This document shows, in pieces, positions 30,281-44,160 of a DNA stretch of 64,000 nucleotides; the stretch's first letter is position 1; each line of letters starts with the position of its first letter. The notes beneath the pieces are model-generated. The model saw only the letters and a list, made by a program, of their open reading frames with translations, was not told where the DNA came from and did no database searches. The translations under genes and the position numbers were made by a program. Origin of the DNA: a bacterium (GTDB taxonomy: Bacteria; Patescibacteriota; Minisyncoccia; Phycocordibacterales; CAIZLB01); the NCBI GenBank assembly GCA_037127815.1, contig JBAXXP010000001.1:232174-296173 (forward strand). The letters are read 5' to 3'.

Positions 30281-31128
30281 AAAATCGCTCAACTTCAAGA
30301 AACGACGAACTCAGCATTCCTGAAATTTGAAAATTAAATTCTGTACCAGTTTTAGTGGATAACATTCATGTAGTTTAGGCCATGTGGCCGATGCTACCTG
30401 ATACGTATTCTGTTTGGTCTTTTCAATACTGGAGACAGAGCTCCATGAAGTACTACTTTAAGGGTAATGCTGCATGGGGTCGTTATCGTACTTACTCTCA
30501 AGGAGTATGATAACAAAACAGGTAACAAACAAAAGTGATTGTGGTCTTTTTATTTCCTAATAGGAAATATAAGGGCGTATGGTGGATGCCTTGACACAAC
30601 ATAGCGATGAAGGACGCAGCATGGCGGCGATACGCTTCGGGGAGGTGCCTAGCAACCTTTGATCCGGAGATTTCCGAATGGGGAAACCCAAGAGACTTGA
30701 TCTCTTATCTTACTTTTAAGTAAGGTGCGCACCCAGTGAAGTAAAACATTCTAGTAACTGGAGGAAAAGAAAACAAGTACGTAAGTACACAATTTCGTAA
30801 ATAGCGGCGAGCGAAAACGAAATAGCCCAAACCAGACTTCCACATTGGGGATGACATTTTATCGGTTCTTTAATTTATTAGGGAACTATCATTATGCTGT
30901 CTCCTATGTGGCAGTCTGGGGTTGTAAGATAATAATAGGATATTTATATCCAAAGAGTTACAAAATTTTTTGTTAACAGAACGCGTTGGGAAGCGCGACC
31001 AAAGAGGGTGACAGTCCCGTATGTGAAAATAAAAAATCTCTTCTTTATTACTCTTGAGTACCCCGAGACACGAGTGGCTCGGGGGAATCCAGCAGAACTA
31101 ACTGCTAAGGCTAAATATATGTTGTGAT

Positions 31129-31165
<37 letters not shown>

Positions 31166-32591
31166 CAGTCCGATGAGGACAGTGAAATAGACCTGAAACC
31201 ATATGCCTACAAGGAGTCAGAGCGGACGTATTTATACGATCCGTCATGGCGTGCCTATTGAAGAATGAGCCAACGAGTTAATATGTATTGCTCGGCTAAA
31301 TCCGCGAGGATGGAGCCATAGGGAAACCGAGTATTAATAGTGCGTCCGTATTACATATTAGACCCGAAGCCAATGCGAGCTATCCCTGGTCAGGCTGAAC
31401 TTTGTCGAAAGACAAAGGGAGGGCCGAACCCGTATGTCGTTCAACTCATTGGGATGAACTGGGGATAGAAGTGAAAAGCTAATCGAGCTTGGTAATAGCT
31501 GGTTCTCTCCGAAATAGCTTTTGGGTTAGCGTCGTGTGTTCCTCTTGGGGGTAGAGCACTGGAAGGACTCGACAGGGAGAAATCTCGCGAGTCCTATCAA
31601 ACTCCGAATACCAAGAACTAAAGCACGGCAGTTAGTCCGTGGGGGCTAAGCTCCACAGGACAAAAGGGAAACAGCCCTAGATCCATATTTAAGGTCCCTA
31701 AATCTATACTAAGTGCACTTAAGGTGGTGGAATTTCTGAGACAATGAGGAGGTTTGCTTAGAAGCAGCAATCCTTGAAAGATAGCGTAATAGCTCACTCA
31801 TCGAGAGATTCTGCGCCGCAGATTCGCGGGGCTAAAGTATAGTACCGAAACTTGGGGTGTCCTACTGCTTCGGCGGTAGGGCGCGGTAGGAGAGTGTTCT
31901 TGTCTGCGATGAAGGGGAAGAGGTGACTCACCCTGGAGCGTCAAGAAGTAAGAATGTTGGCACAAGTAACCACAATCGGAGTGAAAAACTCCGACGCCGA
32001 AAGAACAAGGTTTCCTTCGCAATGATTGTCATCGAAGGGTTAGTCGGGCCTAAGGGGATGGTGAGAACCGAACCCGACGGACACATGGTTAATATTCCAT
32101 GACTTCTGTATACAGTGATGAAATGACGGAGTGTAGTATGAACAGCGCATAATCGGATTTGTGTCCATGCTTTAAGGAAGTTCTCTAGGTAAGTCCGGAG
32201 AGCTGATTTTAATATCAATTCCAAATAGAGTGGAGACGTTAGGGGTTCGCCTCTAAATAATTGTTCAAAGCACGCTTCCAAGAAAATTTTCTAAACTTAT
32301 GTATGCGGAAACCGTACCGAAAACCGACACAGGTGTTCAGGTCGAGTAGACCAAGGCGAACGGGTGAGAGGTCTTCAAGGAACTCGGCAAAAAAGCAGCC
32401 GTAACTTCGGAATAAGGCTCGCCCTCCCTAAAAAGAGGGTTGCAACAAAAGTATCCCTGGCAACTGTTTATCAAAAACACAGCTCCCTGCGAACTCGTAA
32501 GAGTATGTATAGGGGGTGACACCTGACCGATGCCAGAAGGTTAAACGTTGAGGGTACTATCGCAAGGTAGTGCTGATTGATGTAAGCCCTG

Positions 32592-32626
<35 letters not shown>

Positions 32627-32987
32627 TCAGCATTTGTTTTTATTAATGAATGCTGAAGAACTAGGACTGTTCATAGATGTGTTGATAAATAATGAAGAAC
32701 CAAAGAATGCAAAGGAAAATTAGAGCTGCCTGTTTCAGTAAAATGAAGCGTTCAGACTGACTATATGCTGGTAAATCTGTGTGTGAAAAACACTGTAGTA
32801 TCTAACACTACTAAGTTATAAAATTCGAAAGAAAATTATTTCAAGTAAAAATGTGATTAGTGCAGACGATCAGCAGGAAAGACTAAAAAGTAATTTTTAG
32901 AATCCTCAGAAACCAAACGTCAGACTAAATAGTAATATTTAGAAGATAGAGTTCGATCTTTATAGCGATATAAAGTTAACATAAATT
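32627..32987 (+). mobile_element. Group I intron in 23S rRNA at the position equivalent to E. coli about 1931 (between CCUAAGGU and AGCGAAAUUCC); no ORF
   Basis: 361-nt insertion splitting a universally conserved 23S block. Contains group I core elements (CAGACTAAATA R-like, AGAAGATAGAGTTCGATC S-like). Boundaries +/- 2 nt. Confidence 0.7.
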
Positions 32988-33316
32988 AGCGAAATTCCTT
33001 GTCAGGTAAGTTCTGACGCGCACGAATGGTGTAATGACTGGGGAACTGTCTCGAAGACCCGCCCGGTGAAAATGCAATGGAGGTGAAGATGCCTCCTACC
33101 TGCAGCTAGACGAAAAGACCCCAGAAGCTTCACTGCAACTTGATATTGATTGTATGTTTTTACTGCGTAGAATAGATGGGAGAGGTTGAGATCCTGATTT
33201 CGGTTAGGGTGGACTCGTCAGTGAAATACCATTCTTTAAAAATATACATTCTAACCTCGACGGAAAAAACGTCGAGAGACAGTATCTGGTGGGCAGTTTT
33301 AGTGGGGCGCTATCCT

Positions 33317-33680
33317 CGAGGGTTTAAATTAATTTTTGAATCCTCGAACTATGGCGCCTCCAGAGATTTGTCATCTCGAAACAAATAAAAAAGGGGGACT
33401 GTAATAAGTAATTATTATTAGAAAAGTTAGTTATATGCTGGAAAATCTGTGTCTTCAATGACTTAGAATGCAAGCTACCTATTAATTTAGGTAACAATGT
33501 TTGCATGCAGACTATCAGCAGGAAAGATTTCTATCACAAAAAGTAAAATTGATGTAATAGAGAAATCCTCAGAGACTATACGCTAACCGTCCAGTAAAAT
33601 GGATGATGATATAGTCCGATCTTTATAGCGATATAAAGCTTACTGAAAAGTAAGGCTTAGTAAAATAAGTAACATAAATG
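33317..33680 (+). mobile_element. Group I intron in 23S rRNA inserted just 3' of the P-loop block (GGGGCGCUAUCCU | CCUAAAAAGUAACGGAGG; E. coli about 2260s); no ORF
   Basis: 364-nt insertion; 5' exon ends in U and intron ends in G. Shares core elements with intron 1 (TATATGCTGG-AAATCTGTGT, ATCAGCAGGAAAGA, GATGATATAGTCCGATC, AACATAAAT). Confidence 0.7.
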
Positions 33681-34066
33681 CCTAAAAAGTAACGGAGGAG
33701 TCTATTAAGGTCAGCTAGGCGCGAATGGAAACCGTGCCGATAGTGCAATGGCATAAGCTGGCTTGACTGTGAGGCGTAAGTGCCAAACAGACGCGAAAGC
33801 GGAGCATAGTGAACCGAGGGTCCGCATTAGATGCGGCCAAAGATTATCTGACAAAAGCTACTCTGGGGATAACAGGCTGGTTGTGCCTAAGCGTCCATAG
33901 CGACGGCACAGTTCGGCACCTCGATGTCGGCTCGACTTATCCTGGGGGTGAAGAAGCTCCCAAGGGTATGGCTGTTCGCCATTTAAAAAGTCACGCGAGC
34001 TGGGTTCAGACCGTCGTAAGACAGGTTGGTCTCCTATCTGCTGCAGGCGTTGATACTTGAGAGGAA

Positions 34067-34097
<31 letters not shown>

Positions 34098-34413
34098 TGA
34101 TCTCTGGTGTACCAGTTGTCTTGCCAAAGGCATCGCTGGGTAGCTATATCGGGAATGGATAAGCTCTGAAAGCATCTAAGAGCGAAGCCAACCTCAAGAT
34201 AAGGTATCGTTTGAGATCCGTGAGAGATTATCACGTTGATAGGCACTAAGTATAAGCATAGTAATATGTTCAGCTGAGGTGTACTAATAAATCGATTCTT
34301 ATTAGGAAATATGAAGATTCACGATCACTTTTGTTTGTGACCTAAATTACAAAATAATAATTCTGCAAGTTTTATTATAGAACCATGAAAAGACCTTTAA
34401 ATTGACCGTTTCG

Positions 34414-34523
34414 TTCTGGTGACTCGTCGGAGGGGCCACACCTGATCTCATTCCGAACTCAGAAGTTAAGACCTCCAGAGGCGATGATACTCACTTGTTG
34501 GGGAAAGTAGCTCGTCGCCAGAA
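34414..34523 (+). rRNA. rrf: 5S ribosomal RNA
   Basis: CCACACCTGATCTCATTCCGAACTCAGAAGTTAAG ... terminal helix TTCTGGTGAC / GTCGCCAGAA. Confidence 0.85.
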
Positions 34524-40414: not shown

Positions 40415-40602
40415 TACGACCACGCCACTGATGATTTTCACAAATCATTTGATTAAATCGCAGGGGGCCGTCCTAGGAATCTCCCAGGAATATTGAGTTA
40501 GGTAAAACTAATAAAATATTTCAGGCATTTCTAAAGACATCTTTGACAACTAAATGACAACCAACAAACGTCCTTTTTTTTGTTCTGTTTGAGTTTAATT
40601 TT

Positions 40603-42062
<1,460 letters not shown>

Positions 42063-42424
42063 GAACAATTCAATTTGAAAAATGCGTACATGAATTTCAT
42101 GTATTAGCTGAATACGGTTGATCGAACTTAATTTATTAAGCTCAATGAGATTATGCCTCGAGAATGCATAAGGAAGGTATAACCTAAATATACTGCCTCC
42201 TGGGAACAAGGCCAGGCCAAACAGAACAATAATAAGGACGGTTGAGGTTGTCATTTAGTCGCCAAAGTACATATTTTATATGATAAAAGTACTCCGCAAG
42301 CGGGGTTTTTTTATTGCTTTGTTTTTCTTAAAATAGTCTTTAAAATAGACTTGTTTTTAATGGGATAATTTGATACATTATAAACCACAAACAGCAAAGG
42401 TTTGACAAGTCTGTTTGTAAGAAT

Positions 42425-42498
42425 GCGTGTGTAGCTCAGCTGGTTAGAGCACTTCACTGATAATGAAGAGGCCGCAGGTTCGAGTCCTGCCACACGCA
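42425..42498 (+). tRNA. tRNA-Ile (anticodon GAU)
   Basis: GCGTGTGTAGCTCAGCTGGTTAGAGCACTTCACTGATAATGAAGAGGCCGCAGGTTCGAGTCCTGCCACACGCA; cloverleaf with CUGAUAA anticodon loop. Confidence 0.85.
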
Positions 42499-42594
42499 CA
42501 AAGTAAGTCTCAAGTTTGAATCTATAAGTTATAAAATCTGCAGGGTAACCTGTGGATTTTTTAATTGATTTTTGCAATATACCATATATGATAT

Positions 42595-44160
42595 ATGTAT
42601 ATGAAAAGCAAAACAGAGTTAAAAGTCAAAGTATCTACTAATCCTAAGGTAACAGAAAGTAATAAAAATTTGGGATTCTTTATTAAACAACTTCGAGAGG
42701 ATAGAAATCTAACTCAAACAGATTTTGCTAAGCTTTTGAAAACATCACAAAGTGCGGTAGCTAGGATTGAGAATGGGGGACAGAACATGACAACAGAAGA
42801 ATTGAATAGAATAAGTATTGCTCTTGGAAGAAAAATTATGACTATTTCAGATTCTATTGATGTAGAAATTAATGGGGGAAGAAAACTTTCTGGAACTATC
42901 GCAACGAATACATCTAAAAATGGGGCGCTTGGTCTTATTTGTGCATCACTTTTAAATAAAGGAAAAACTCGTCTGCATGGAATACCTCGTATTGAAGAGG
43001 TTCAAAGAATTATAGAATTAATGGAAAGTATTGGTATTTCAATAAAATGGATTGAAAAAAATACTTTGGAAATTATTGTTCCAAAAAAGTTAAAAACGGA
43101 GAATATGGATAAGGTCGCAGCAGGAAGAATTAGATCCGGCTTGATGATGATTGGCCCAATGATCCATCTAGAAAGTATATTTAAAATACCTCACTCAGGA
43201 GGTTGTAAAATGGGTCAAAGGACAATCTCTGCTCATAGATATGGTCTAGAAGATTTGGGTGTAAAAATTGATACAAAAGAGGATCATTATCTAATTCAAT
43301 CAAAAAAACTAGCGCCCGCTCATATTATAATGTCAGAGTCTTCCGATACTGCGGCCGAGAATTTATTAATGGCGGCAGCCCTAATAAAAGGGAAGACTAC
43401 AATTCAGTTTGCACCACCAAACTATCAGGTTCAGGAAGTATGTTTCTTTCTGGAAACCTTGGGTGTGAAAATTGAGGGCGTTGGTTCAACCACGTTAATC
43501 GTTCATGGAATTGATGAAATTAATATGGATGTTGATTATTATAATAGTGAAGATCCAACAGAATCTATGATGTTCATTACAGCAGGTATTGTAACTGGAT
43601 CTACTCTGACTATAACGAGATGTCCAATTGATTTTCTAGCCCTGGAAATGTTTAAGTTAAAAAAGATGGGATTGAAGTATAAGCAGACATCTGTTTATTA
43701 TGCTGTGAATGGTAGAACAAAATTAGTTGATATTACTATTTACCCATCAAAACTAGTTGCTCCACTTGATAAAATTTCAGCCCAACCATATCCTGGAATT
43801 AATACTGATAACCTGCCATTCTTTGTGCCAATTGCTGTGTTGGCTAAGGGGACAACTTTGATTCATGATTGGATGTGGGAGAATAGAGCAATTTATTTTA
43901 CAGAGTTAAATAGGCTTGGGGCCAATATCAACCTGGCGGATCCTCACAGAGTTTTTATTCAAGGGCCCACAGAATTGAAGGCTGCACAAATTGTTTGCCC
44001 TTTAGCACTACGCCCTGCAATGATTATTATGGTTGCCATGCTTGGAGCAAAAGGAAAATCTATTCTTAGAAACATTTACCCAATAAGCAGGGGGTATGAG
44101 GATATTGCTGAACGATTGAATGGAATAGGGGCGGACATTAAGGTGATAAAGGAGATATAG
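42595..44160 (+). CDS. murA: UDP-N-acetylglucosamine 1-carboxyvinyltransferase MurA fused to an N-terminal XRE/Cro-type HTH domain (about 85 aa)
   Basis: HTH: LTQTDFAKLLKTSQSAVARIENG. MurA: GGRKLSGTIATNTSKNGALGLICASLL, C-terminal RGYEDIAERLNGIGADI. Confidence 0.8.
   Translation: MYMKSKTELKVKVSTNPKVTESNKNLGFFIKQLREDRNLTQTDFAKLLKTSQSAVARIENGGQNMTTEELNRISIALGRKIMTISDSIDVEINGGRKLSGTIATNTSKNGALGLICASLLNKGKTRLHGIPRIEEVQRIIELMESIGISIKWIEKNTLEIIVPKKLKTENMDKVAAGRIRSGLMMIGPMIHLESIFKIPHSGGCKMGQRTISAHRYGLEDLGVKIDTKEDHYLIQSKKLAPAHIIMSESSDTAAENLLMAAALIKGKTTIQFAPPNYQVQEVCFFLETLGVKIEGVGSTTLIVHGIDEINMDVDYYNSEDPTESMMFITAGIVTGSTLTITRCPIDFLALEMFKLKKMGLKYKQTSVYYAVNGRTKLVDITIYPSKLVAPLDKISAQPYPGINTDNLPFFVPIAVLAKGTTLIHDWMWENRAIYFTELNRLGANINLADPHRVFIQGPTELKAAQIVCPLALRPAMIIMVAMLGAKGKSILRNIYPISRGYEDIAERLNGIGADIKVIKEI

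Follow-up and report, generated by a model that had tools for sequence, protein, structure and literature searches.

Group I introns are considered to have two near-invariant hallmarks, the guanosine at the 3' terminus of the intron (omega G) and the G-C pair of helix P7 that receives it, and the mechanism in which one pocket serves two splicing steps was established by mutating exactly this P7 pair. In Tetrahymena the pocket comprises four stacked triples, A263.C262-G312, omegaG.G264-C311, A261.A265-U310 and A306.C266-G309 (PMC10020454), and in the canonical omega triple the guanine is held through N1-H...O6 and N2-H...N7 of G264 (PMC2588497). Group I introns inserted after position 1931 of 23S ribosomal RNA (rRNA; site L1931) that carry LAGLIDADG endonucleases form a family documented in Simkania, Thermotoga, cyanobacteria and organelles, with the open reading frame (ORF) situated in a peripheral loop and running into the core (PMC1995217). 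L1931-type introns are frequent in 23S genes of the Candidate Phyla Radiation (CPR), and CPR rRNA insertions have been reported to be removed from transcripts (PMC11270868). The present analysis concerns an intron of this kind at positions 32627-32987 of a 64,000-nucleotide stretch of contig JBAXXP010000001.1, from a bacterium of the Patescibacteriota; the whole of this stretch is termed the window. The intron ends in U and has an A-U pair at the position of G264-C311, and the two traits are linked in a sub-lineage known to date from Patescibacteria/CPR-type genomes. By descent it is an L1931 group I intron, while by the classical functional definition it fails on both the G-C pair and the terminal G. 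Comparison with its relatives suggests that it is probably still spliced by its own ribozyme, with the A-U pair as a co-adaptation to the terminal U.

The window intron has its insertion site and an IC1-like architecture with a complex P5 in common with the published L1931 family, and its relatives carry PF00961 ORFs as that family does. The window copy itself is distinguished by the lack of an ORF, the U end and the A-U pair, the omega nucleotide and P7 pair of the published introns lying outside this comparison. A bacterial precedent for a missing terminal G is the intron Cbu.L1917 of Coxiella burnetii, a 23S group I intron that, in work by Raghavan from 2007, reportedly self-splices without the canonical G and is said to end in A; no corresponding alteration of its P7 pair is known to us. 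The two introns are alike in interrupting the same neighborhood of a bacterial 23S rRNA with a last nucleotide other than G, but Cbu.L1917 is a single case at site 1917, whereas the window intron combines a U end with an altered pocket pair and belongs to a diversified lineage. Mutation of G264-C311 in Tetrahymena abolishes normal guanosine use, and studies by Michel in 1989 and by Been and Perrotta in 1991 are said to have demonstrated, with an intron engineered to G264A:C311U, that one pocket serves both steps; the engineered A-U pocket reportedly prefers 2-aminopurine or adenosine and requires a terminal A. The change from G-C to A-U is identical to the one described here and the terminal nucleotide changes along with it, but the engineered intron is laboratory-made and ends in A, while the natural lineage of the window couples A-U with terminal U.

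The window is ORF-dense, with about 36% G+C and one tRNA. The Rfam bacterial large subunit (LSU) model identifies a full-length 23S gene at 30556-34308 (2228.8 bits, model positions 1-2925) with a surplus length of about 830 nucleotides (nt); a 5S gene adjoins its 3' side and 16S and tRNA-Ile genes follow 6 kb further on. Local matches to the LSU model stop at 32624 (model position 1955) and restart at 32987 (model position 1957), bearing out the original prediction of a 361-nt insertion near E. coli position 1931 and placing it exactly between U1931 and A1932, the site that defines the L1931 lineage. The letters at the junctions are ...ACGGTCCTAAGGT, ending at 32626, then TCAGC...CATAAATT, ending at 32987, and then AGCGAAATTCC. 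Exon U1931 could be assigned to either 32626 or 32987, an ambiguity of one T that is harmless to the result because both possible final intron bases are T. As had also been proposed, the insertion is free of coding capacity, with no ORF longer than 46 amino acids on either strand (none above 33 on the forward strand), and the single-motif LAGLIDADG ORF of the lineage is absent from this copy. The same intron recurs base for base in two independent assemblies, one of which (L002; three-digit labels of this kind denote compared sequences) is identical to the window across the whole 23S gene, and the other (L001) differs from it at six positions, every one of them outside introns.

Several lines of evidence establish the insertion as a genuine group I intron of the L1931 lineage that has lost its endonuclease gene and kept a selected ribozyme fold. 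A covariance-model search, which the original prediction had suggested as a check, gave a divided answer: the Rfam family Intron_gpI (RF00028) matches 32726-32975 with an E value of 1.9e-6 on a 411-nt stretch (1.9e-5 on 4.2 kb), and the score of 31.8 bits lies under the gathering cut-off of 50. The score is low because of long insertions in the P1 loop and P5 and because of the altered P7. A related genome, L250, which matches the window at about 96% identity across the 23S exons, carries at the same site an 801-nt intron with 90% identity to the window intron across the 359 nt they have in common. The L250 intron encodes a 174-amino acid LAGLIDADG_1 (PF00961) ORF in the P6 loop (L6), relative to which the window copy has undergone a clean deletion of about 420 nt, with P6 re-closed by a GUAA loop; where the two introns diverge in the first hairpin, P2 and P8, the substitutions compensate one another. 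The helices were assessed in an alignment of 15 related introns with A-U pockets, using slid pairing partners and 500 shuffles as controls. Across these helices 95.6% of cells are paired, as against 34-42% in the slid controls, and double-sided changes occur in 26 of 57 pairs, a value reached by none of the 500 shuffles. RNAalifold finds compensatory changes in 10 of 13 pairs of P8 and P9, and most helices also appear in the minimum free energy (MFE) fold of the single intron sequence (z = -2.7). The group I core from P3 to P9, including the P3/P7 pseudoknot, is therefore present in the form of covarying helices, and with it the P3-P7 core on which the original prediction had staked the group I assignment. 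Of the two core-like motifs singled out in that prediction, AGAAGATAGAGTTCGATC corresponds to the joining segment J8/7 with the 3' strand of P7, and GTCAGACTAAATA turned out to be the 3' strand of P3 with the start of P8.

The 3' splice site, between 32987 and 32988, is located by three independent features: exon homology, P10 and P9.0. P10 joins AGC of the 3' exon to GCU of the internal guide. In P9.0, A32985 and U32986 pair with U32957 and A32956, and the helix covaries among related introns as UA/AU, AU/CG, AU/UA, AU/GC, CG/AU and CG/CG. The final nucleotide is U32987, as had been suspected, and it is homologous to the terminal G of G-ending relatives and of a second intron in the same gene (below). 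Two explanations had been offered for the unexpected terminus, an unusual 3' splice site or a slightly deviating exon; the former holds, since P10 and P9.0 fix the junction, and the latter falls away with exons that are canonical. Splicing at the last G (32975) was rejected: it would leave 12 extra nucleotides in the rRNA, and relatives have their last G in differing places while P9.0 and P10 always indicate the final U. A shift of the insertion site to 1930 or 1933 is forbidden by the flanking bases, and G-ending relatives have the same P1 wobble.

Alignment to the Rfam consensus allows each nucleotide of the Tetrahymena pocket to be matched in the window. On the 5' side A32908 corresponds to 261, G32909 to 262, A32910 to the bulged 263, A32911 to 264, A32912 to 265 and C32913 to 266; on the 3' side A32948 corresponds to 306, G32951 to 309, U32952 to 310, U32953 to 311 and C32954 to 312. 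In the omega layer the canonical G264-C311 is replaced by A32911-U32953. The other three layers are retained, with J8/7 AAGAUA, the bulged A263, A261, A265-U310 and C266-G309 all in place, and layer 262-312 is G32909-C32954 in the window. A coding constraint from the endonuclease ORFs was considered as the origin of A264 and set aside, the change being silent in one frame (GAA/GAG) and in the other converting Asp to Asn at a poorly conserved C-terminus. The C.A and A.G mismatches in P7 were likewise discounted as part of the switch, as they occur in G-C introns with terminal G too.

A second ORF-less group I intron, at 33317-33680 and following U2262 (site L2262), lies 330 nt downstream of the first and represents the canonical state. 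It scores 70.2 bits over 33367-33638, above the Rfam cut-off, and has the canonical pocket pair G33574-C33616 and terminal G33680. The L2262 intron is a paralogue of the L1931 intron, with the same P4-P6 sequences and a P9 identical at 18 of 18 nt. The 3' tail UAACAUAAAU is common to both and is followed by G in the L2262 intron, which ends UAACAUAAAUG, and by U in the L1931 intron. The identity of P9 and the 3' tail suggests that the introns have exchanged sequence or share a recent origin. In L250 the L2262 site is uninterrupted, with GGGGCGCUAUCCU running directly into CCUAAAAAG, and the second intron is absent; the borders of the L2262 intron are thereby confirmed. The L2262 intron is an internal control for the canonical state in this genome.

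The distribution of the two traits was surveyed in a sample blind to omega, drawn from metagenomes scanned for L1931 insertions with any first base but A; the 120 matches listed contain 107 complete introns. The terminal nucleotide in this set is G in 84, A in 15, C in 5 and U in 3. The G-ending introns have a G-C pair where it is readable, with C at position 311 in all, and the A-ending introns have G-C; among the C-ending introns the pair is G-C in L157 and L180, U-A in L139 and L159, and A.C in L242. The three U-ending introns (L189, L195 and L206) have A-U and are the only A-U introns in the set, A-U being found in none of the 99 introns that end in G or A (G-C wherever the 5' strand is readable). 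The association of A-U with U has a Fisher p of 5e-6, a statistic that ignores kinship. A terminus other than G occurs in 23 of the 107 introns (21%), most A and C ends standing on a canonical G-C pair, and terminal G at L1931 seems far less fixed than textbooks state.

Further A-U introns came from two directed sources. Among 120 matches listed from a scan of 596 Gb of genome contigs with HTAGCGAAATTCCTT, a pattern too short for so large a volume, about 110 are chance occurrences and eight are true 23S matches; these eight are biased to U ends and were excluded from the statistics. The scan places introns with an A-U pocket and terminal U (A-U/U) in metagenome-assembled genomes (MAGs) of Saccharibacteria, Paceibacterota and Kaiserbacteria. 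Contigs with endonuclease homologues contributed eight more A-U introns, including examples in Yanofskybacteria and Zambryskibacteria MAGs; seven of these end in U and one (L252) in G. The A-U introns collected number 16 distinct sequences; 15 of them terminate in U, all 16 are located at L1931, and the pair is always Watson-Crick A-U, never a mismatch. The endonuclease ORF is intact in 14 of the 16, the exceptions being the window intron, which has none, and L034, in which it is broken. In the frame of the L018-type endonucleases position 264 is the first base of a codon, and the best 120 clusters of this type have Asn (AAC) in 96, Asp (GAC) in 18 and Tyr (UAC) in one; A at 264 is therefore abundant. 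A scan of viral contigs for the A-U P7 motif gave no match, and a literature search, most subscription journals lying outside it, brought up no description of a U terminus or an A-U pocket in a natural intron.

In rough neighbor-joining trees, one set built from the endonucleases and one from the 5' core, A-U/U introns occupy at least three places among G-C introns, a scattering that would reflect either several separate origins or the swapping of 3' modules. The closest G-264 relatives of the L018 and L115 A-U introns are L260 (927-1803) and L261 (964-1857), in which a G-C pocket is combined with the end ...GUAAGACGAUU before the exon AGCG; these two may represent an intermediate state. Sister introns of the L195 group have G-C with terminal A. 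The only A-U intron with a G end is L252 (ENA ERZ25039501 contig_59541, intron 1305-2052), which ends ...AUCAACACAACAG before AGCG. Its ORF is intact, and its endonuclease is nested among those of A-U/U introns in the tree; the G may stem from reversion, from polymorphism or from an error in sequencing. A third pocket variant, U-A (CAGAUACC... with ...AUGGUAC), is found with terminal C in L139 and L159 and with terminal U in L114, and endonuclease cluster P0251 (LRYHT) implies U at 264.

All elements of the window intron lie on the forward strand. The 5' exon end (23S G1922-U1931, 32617-32626) supplies AGGU (32623-32626) to P1, and the internal guide (32725-32731) pairs through GCCU (32728-32731) with this exon segment and through GCU (32725-32727) with the start of the 3' exon (A1932-C1934, 32988-32990) in the adjacent P10. 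The 5' splice site is marked by the wobble U32626.G32728, which is kept in all 13 relatives that align there; guide pairing in P1 and P10 reaches 94-100% of cells and is invariant, hence without covariation. Relatives with a short P1 loop have the same guide, GCUGCCUUAG. The enlarged P1 loop of the window begins with a hairpin, UCAGCAUU with AAUGCUGA (32627-32656), in which seven of eight pairs are compensatory across 15 relatives. Next in the loop is UAGGAC (32662-32667), a second segment that binds the exon: it is the complement of GUCCUA (32617-32622), and the MFE fold recovers the pairing. In the L2262 intron the equivalent segment AUGGCGCC (33351-33358) is complementary to its own, different exon GGCGCUAU; each segment fits its own exon, and the second exon-intron pairing is therefore real. 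In both introns the enlarged P1 loop holds a segment complementary to the exon at 5-10 nt before the splice site. Together with the short P1 this makes a two-segment, pseudoknot-like grip on the exon, and the motif GGACUGGGAC is kept in many L1931 introns.

The P2 hairpin (GUUUCA GUAAAA UGAAGC, 32732-32749) appears in the MFE fold and differs from L250 in a compensatory manner. The P3 strands CUGAC (32757-32761) and GUCAG (32919-32923, placed by the covariation alignment) pair in 100% of cells, with three of five pairs double-changed. P4 (UGCUGG, 32766-32771, with UCAGCA, 32870-32875) encloses P5 (32776-32780 with 32862-32866) and its extension; P4 and P5 are aligned to the Rfam model and paired in 100% of cells. 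P6 (32876-32905) is closed by the GUAA tetraloop at 32890-32893, the site of the LAGLIDADG ORF in relatives, and six of its seven pairs are compensatory. J6/7 and the P7 5' strand, UCAGAAACCAAAC (TCAGAAACCAAAC), occupy 32906-32918 in the Rfam alignment and are invariant in 16 introns, and J8/7 with the P7 3' strand, AAGAUAGAGUUC, occupies 32943-32954, where the pairs G-C, A-U, A-U and C-G are found in 15 of 15 introns. Between them the P8 hairpin (CUAAAUA GUAA UAUUUAG, 32925-32942) shows compensatory changes in all six pairs predicted by RNAalifold. J7/9 (G A U, 32955-32957) provides one strand of P9.0 and is followed by the P9 hairpin with a GCGA loop (32958-32975; four of seven pairs compensatory, 100% of cells paired). 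The 3' tail UUAACAUAAAUU (32976-32987), recognized from the paralogue and relatives, contains a UAACA motif, the P9.0 strand 32985-32986 and omega U32987.

Intron content varies between genomes with 23S exons about 96% identical. L250 has a further intron at about 946-1265 that ends directly before AACGGUCCUAAGGU, and L247 has extra LAGLIDADG ORFs on both sides of the same rRNA region (655-1185 and 2346-2657). Very short L1931 insertions of 187-230 nt occur in L128, L129, L138, L144, L153, L183, L184, L209, L210, L219, L221, L228, L232, L233, L239 and L245. They keep the first hairpin, exon-binding segment, guide, P2, P3, P7, P8 and P9, have no recognizable P4-P6 domain (they are without UAUGCUGG...CAGCAGGAAAG) and all terminate in G; in appearance they are group I derivatives pared to a minimum.

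If the intron is spliced by its ribozyme, P1 (U1931.G32728) would set the 5' site and P9.0 with P10 the 3' site. For the second step, docking of U32987 on the Hoogsteen face of A32911 is proposed, forming a U.A-U triple instead of G.G-C, and the predicted ligated exon junction is CCUAAGGU joined to AGCGAAAUU. The chemistry has a classical counterpart in the U.A-U triple, in which N6-H and N7 of the adenine Hoogsteen edge match O4 and N3-H of uridine. If one pocket serves both steps, guanosine is expected to be a poor cofactor and a cofactor other than G would be expected. A bolder extension, in which the pocket of a natural group I lineage has been re-specified from G.G-C to U.A-U and the first step proceeds by uridine or adenosine nucleotides or by hydrolysis, is tentative and has the odds somewhat against it. 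U, A and C ends all occur on G-C pockets, so that a non-G terminus is tolerated without pocket change in L1931 introns, and A-U is nearly confined to U ends; loss of the terminal G before the pocket change is the simplest history. The need for a terminal G was probably relaxed first, with A-U arising later on a U background, possibly via a G.U intermediate.

Several points weigh against co-adaptation of pocket and terminus. The splicing of this and of every other A-U/U intron is a prediction from sequence, and the Rfam score of the window copy lies below the family cut-off. The engineered Tetrahymena pocket, as reported, predicts a terminal A and not U with A-U, and a pyrimidine ribose is positioned differently from a purine ribose. 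The Fisher test overstates the independence of the introns, and the neighbor-joining trees derive from short alignments and are without support values, so the number of origins is uncertain. The coupling is also one-sided, with U ends on canonical G-C pockets in L260, L261 and L007, 15 A ends and two C ends on G-C pockets among the matches listed, and a terminal G on the A-U pocket of L252. This last group of observations, together with the fifth or so of listed L1931 introns that lack a terminal G and the reported self-splicing of Cbu.L1917 without one, is what would be seen if splicing were ordinary, exogenous guanosine were the cofactor and the 3' site were chosen by P9.0 and P10 only, with the last nucleotide unread by P7 and A-U as a neutral or weakly deleterious variant, incidental to the terminal U and linked to it by descent. 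Such a relaxed requirement does not readily account for the absence of A-U from all 99 listed introns ending in G or A and its coincidence with U in 15 of 16 cases, for its occurrence in several endonuclease and core lineages, or for a pair that is always Watson-Crick. A neutral A-U pair working with guanosine is also hard to credit given the loss of normal guanosine use in Tetrahymena mutants of this pair, and the explanation is regarded as unlikely, though it deserves serious weight.

Other explanations dispense with splicing or with a living gene. The insertion could, as has been reported for the Simkania negevensis intron at L1931, be kept in mature 23S rRNA or be cut out by host RNases that leave the rRNA in fragments; neither pocket nor terminal nucleotide would then be constrained, and the case for splicing in the window organism is likewise built from sequence comparison. 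This is improbable, since a ribozyme out of use should decay, and conservation is instead seen in the catalytic core, the P1 wobble, P10 and P9.0, along with covariation of the helices; loss of the ORF was followed by tidy closure of P6 with a GNRA loop, and A-U with U is fixed across divergent hosts with no drift. Less credible by far is that the rRNA copy is dead and its intron a decaying relic, or that the final base is an artifact of sequencing or assembly. Loss of the endonuclease gene is the expected first step in the decay cycle of a homing intron, and the Rfam score under the cut-off would suit a relic; against this, the 23S gene fits the full model with a 5S gene next to it, the identical sequence occurs in independent assemblies, terminal U is found in 15 other introns from other samples, and substitutions relative to L250 preserve structure. 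Co-adaptation of the A-U pair to terminal U in a spliced intron is thus the reading preferred here. Relative to the original prediction, what has been added is the A-U pair in P7, its conservation as a lineage trait and the canonical second intron downstream.

The rRNA genes of the window depart from a single operon order: on one strand, 23S-5S (30556-34523) precedes 16S-tRNA-Ile (40596-42499). The interval from 5S to 16S is occupied by genes for five proteins, namely a 251-amino acid protein of no known kind, RodA, SecD, SecF and a YciC-like protein. Beyond them a MurA homologue (42595-44160, 521 amino acids) has about 85 extra N-terminal residues, of which 25-79 match DNA-binding domains of the helix-turn-helix (HTH)/antitoxin type, a fusion unusual for MurA.

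The Rfam cut-off misses the window copy, and annotation rules that demand a terminal G would misplace the 3' borders of such introns. If a widespread lineage has made with U a change equivalent to that engineered in Tetrahymena, the guanosine pocket would be evolvable in nature. The L1931 introns would then provide natural variants for the study of nucleotide discrimination, comprising G-C pockets with G, A, C or U, A-U with U, and U-A with C or U, and the question would arise of which cellular nucleotide initiates splicing. If re-specification is correct, a natural group I intron with altered cofactor specificity would have come to light for the first time, a state reached repeatedly after loss of the terminal G.

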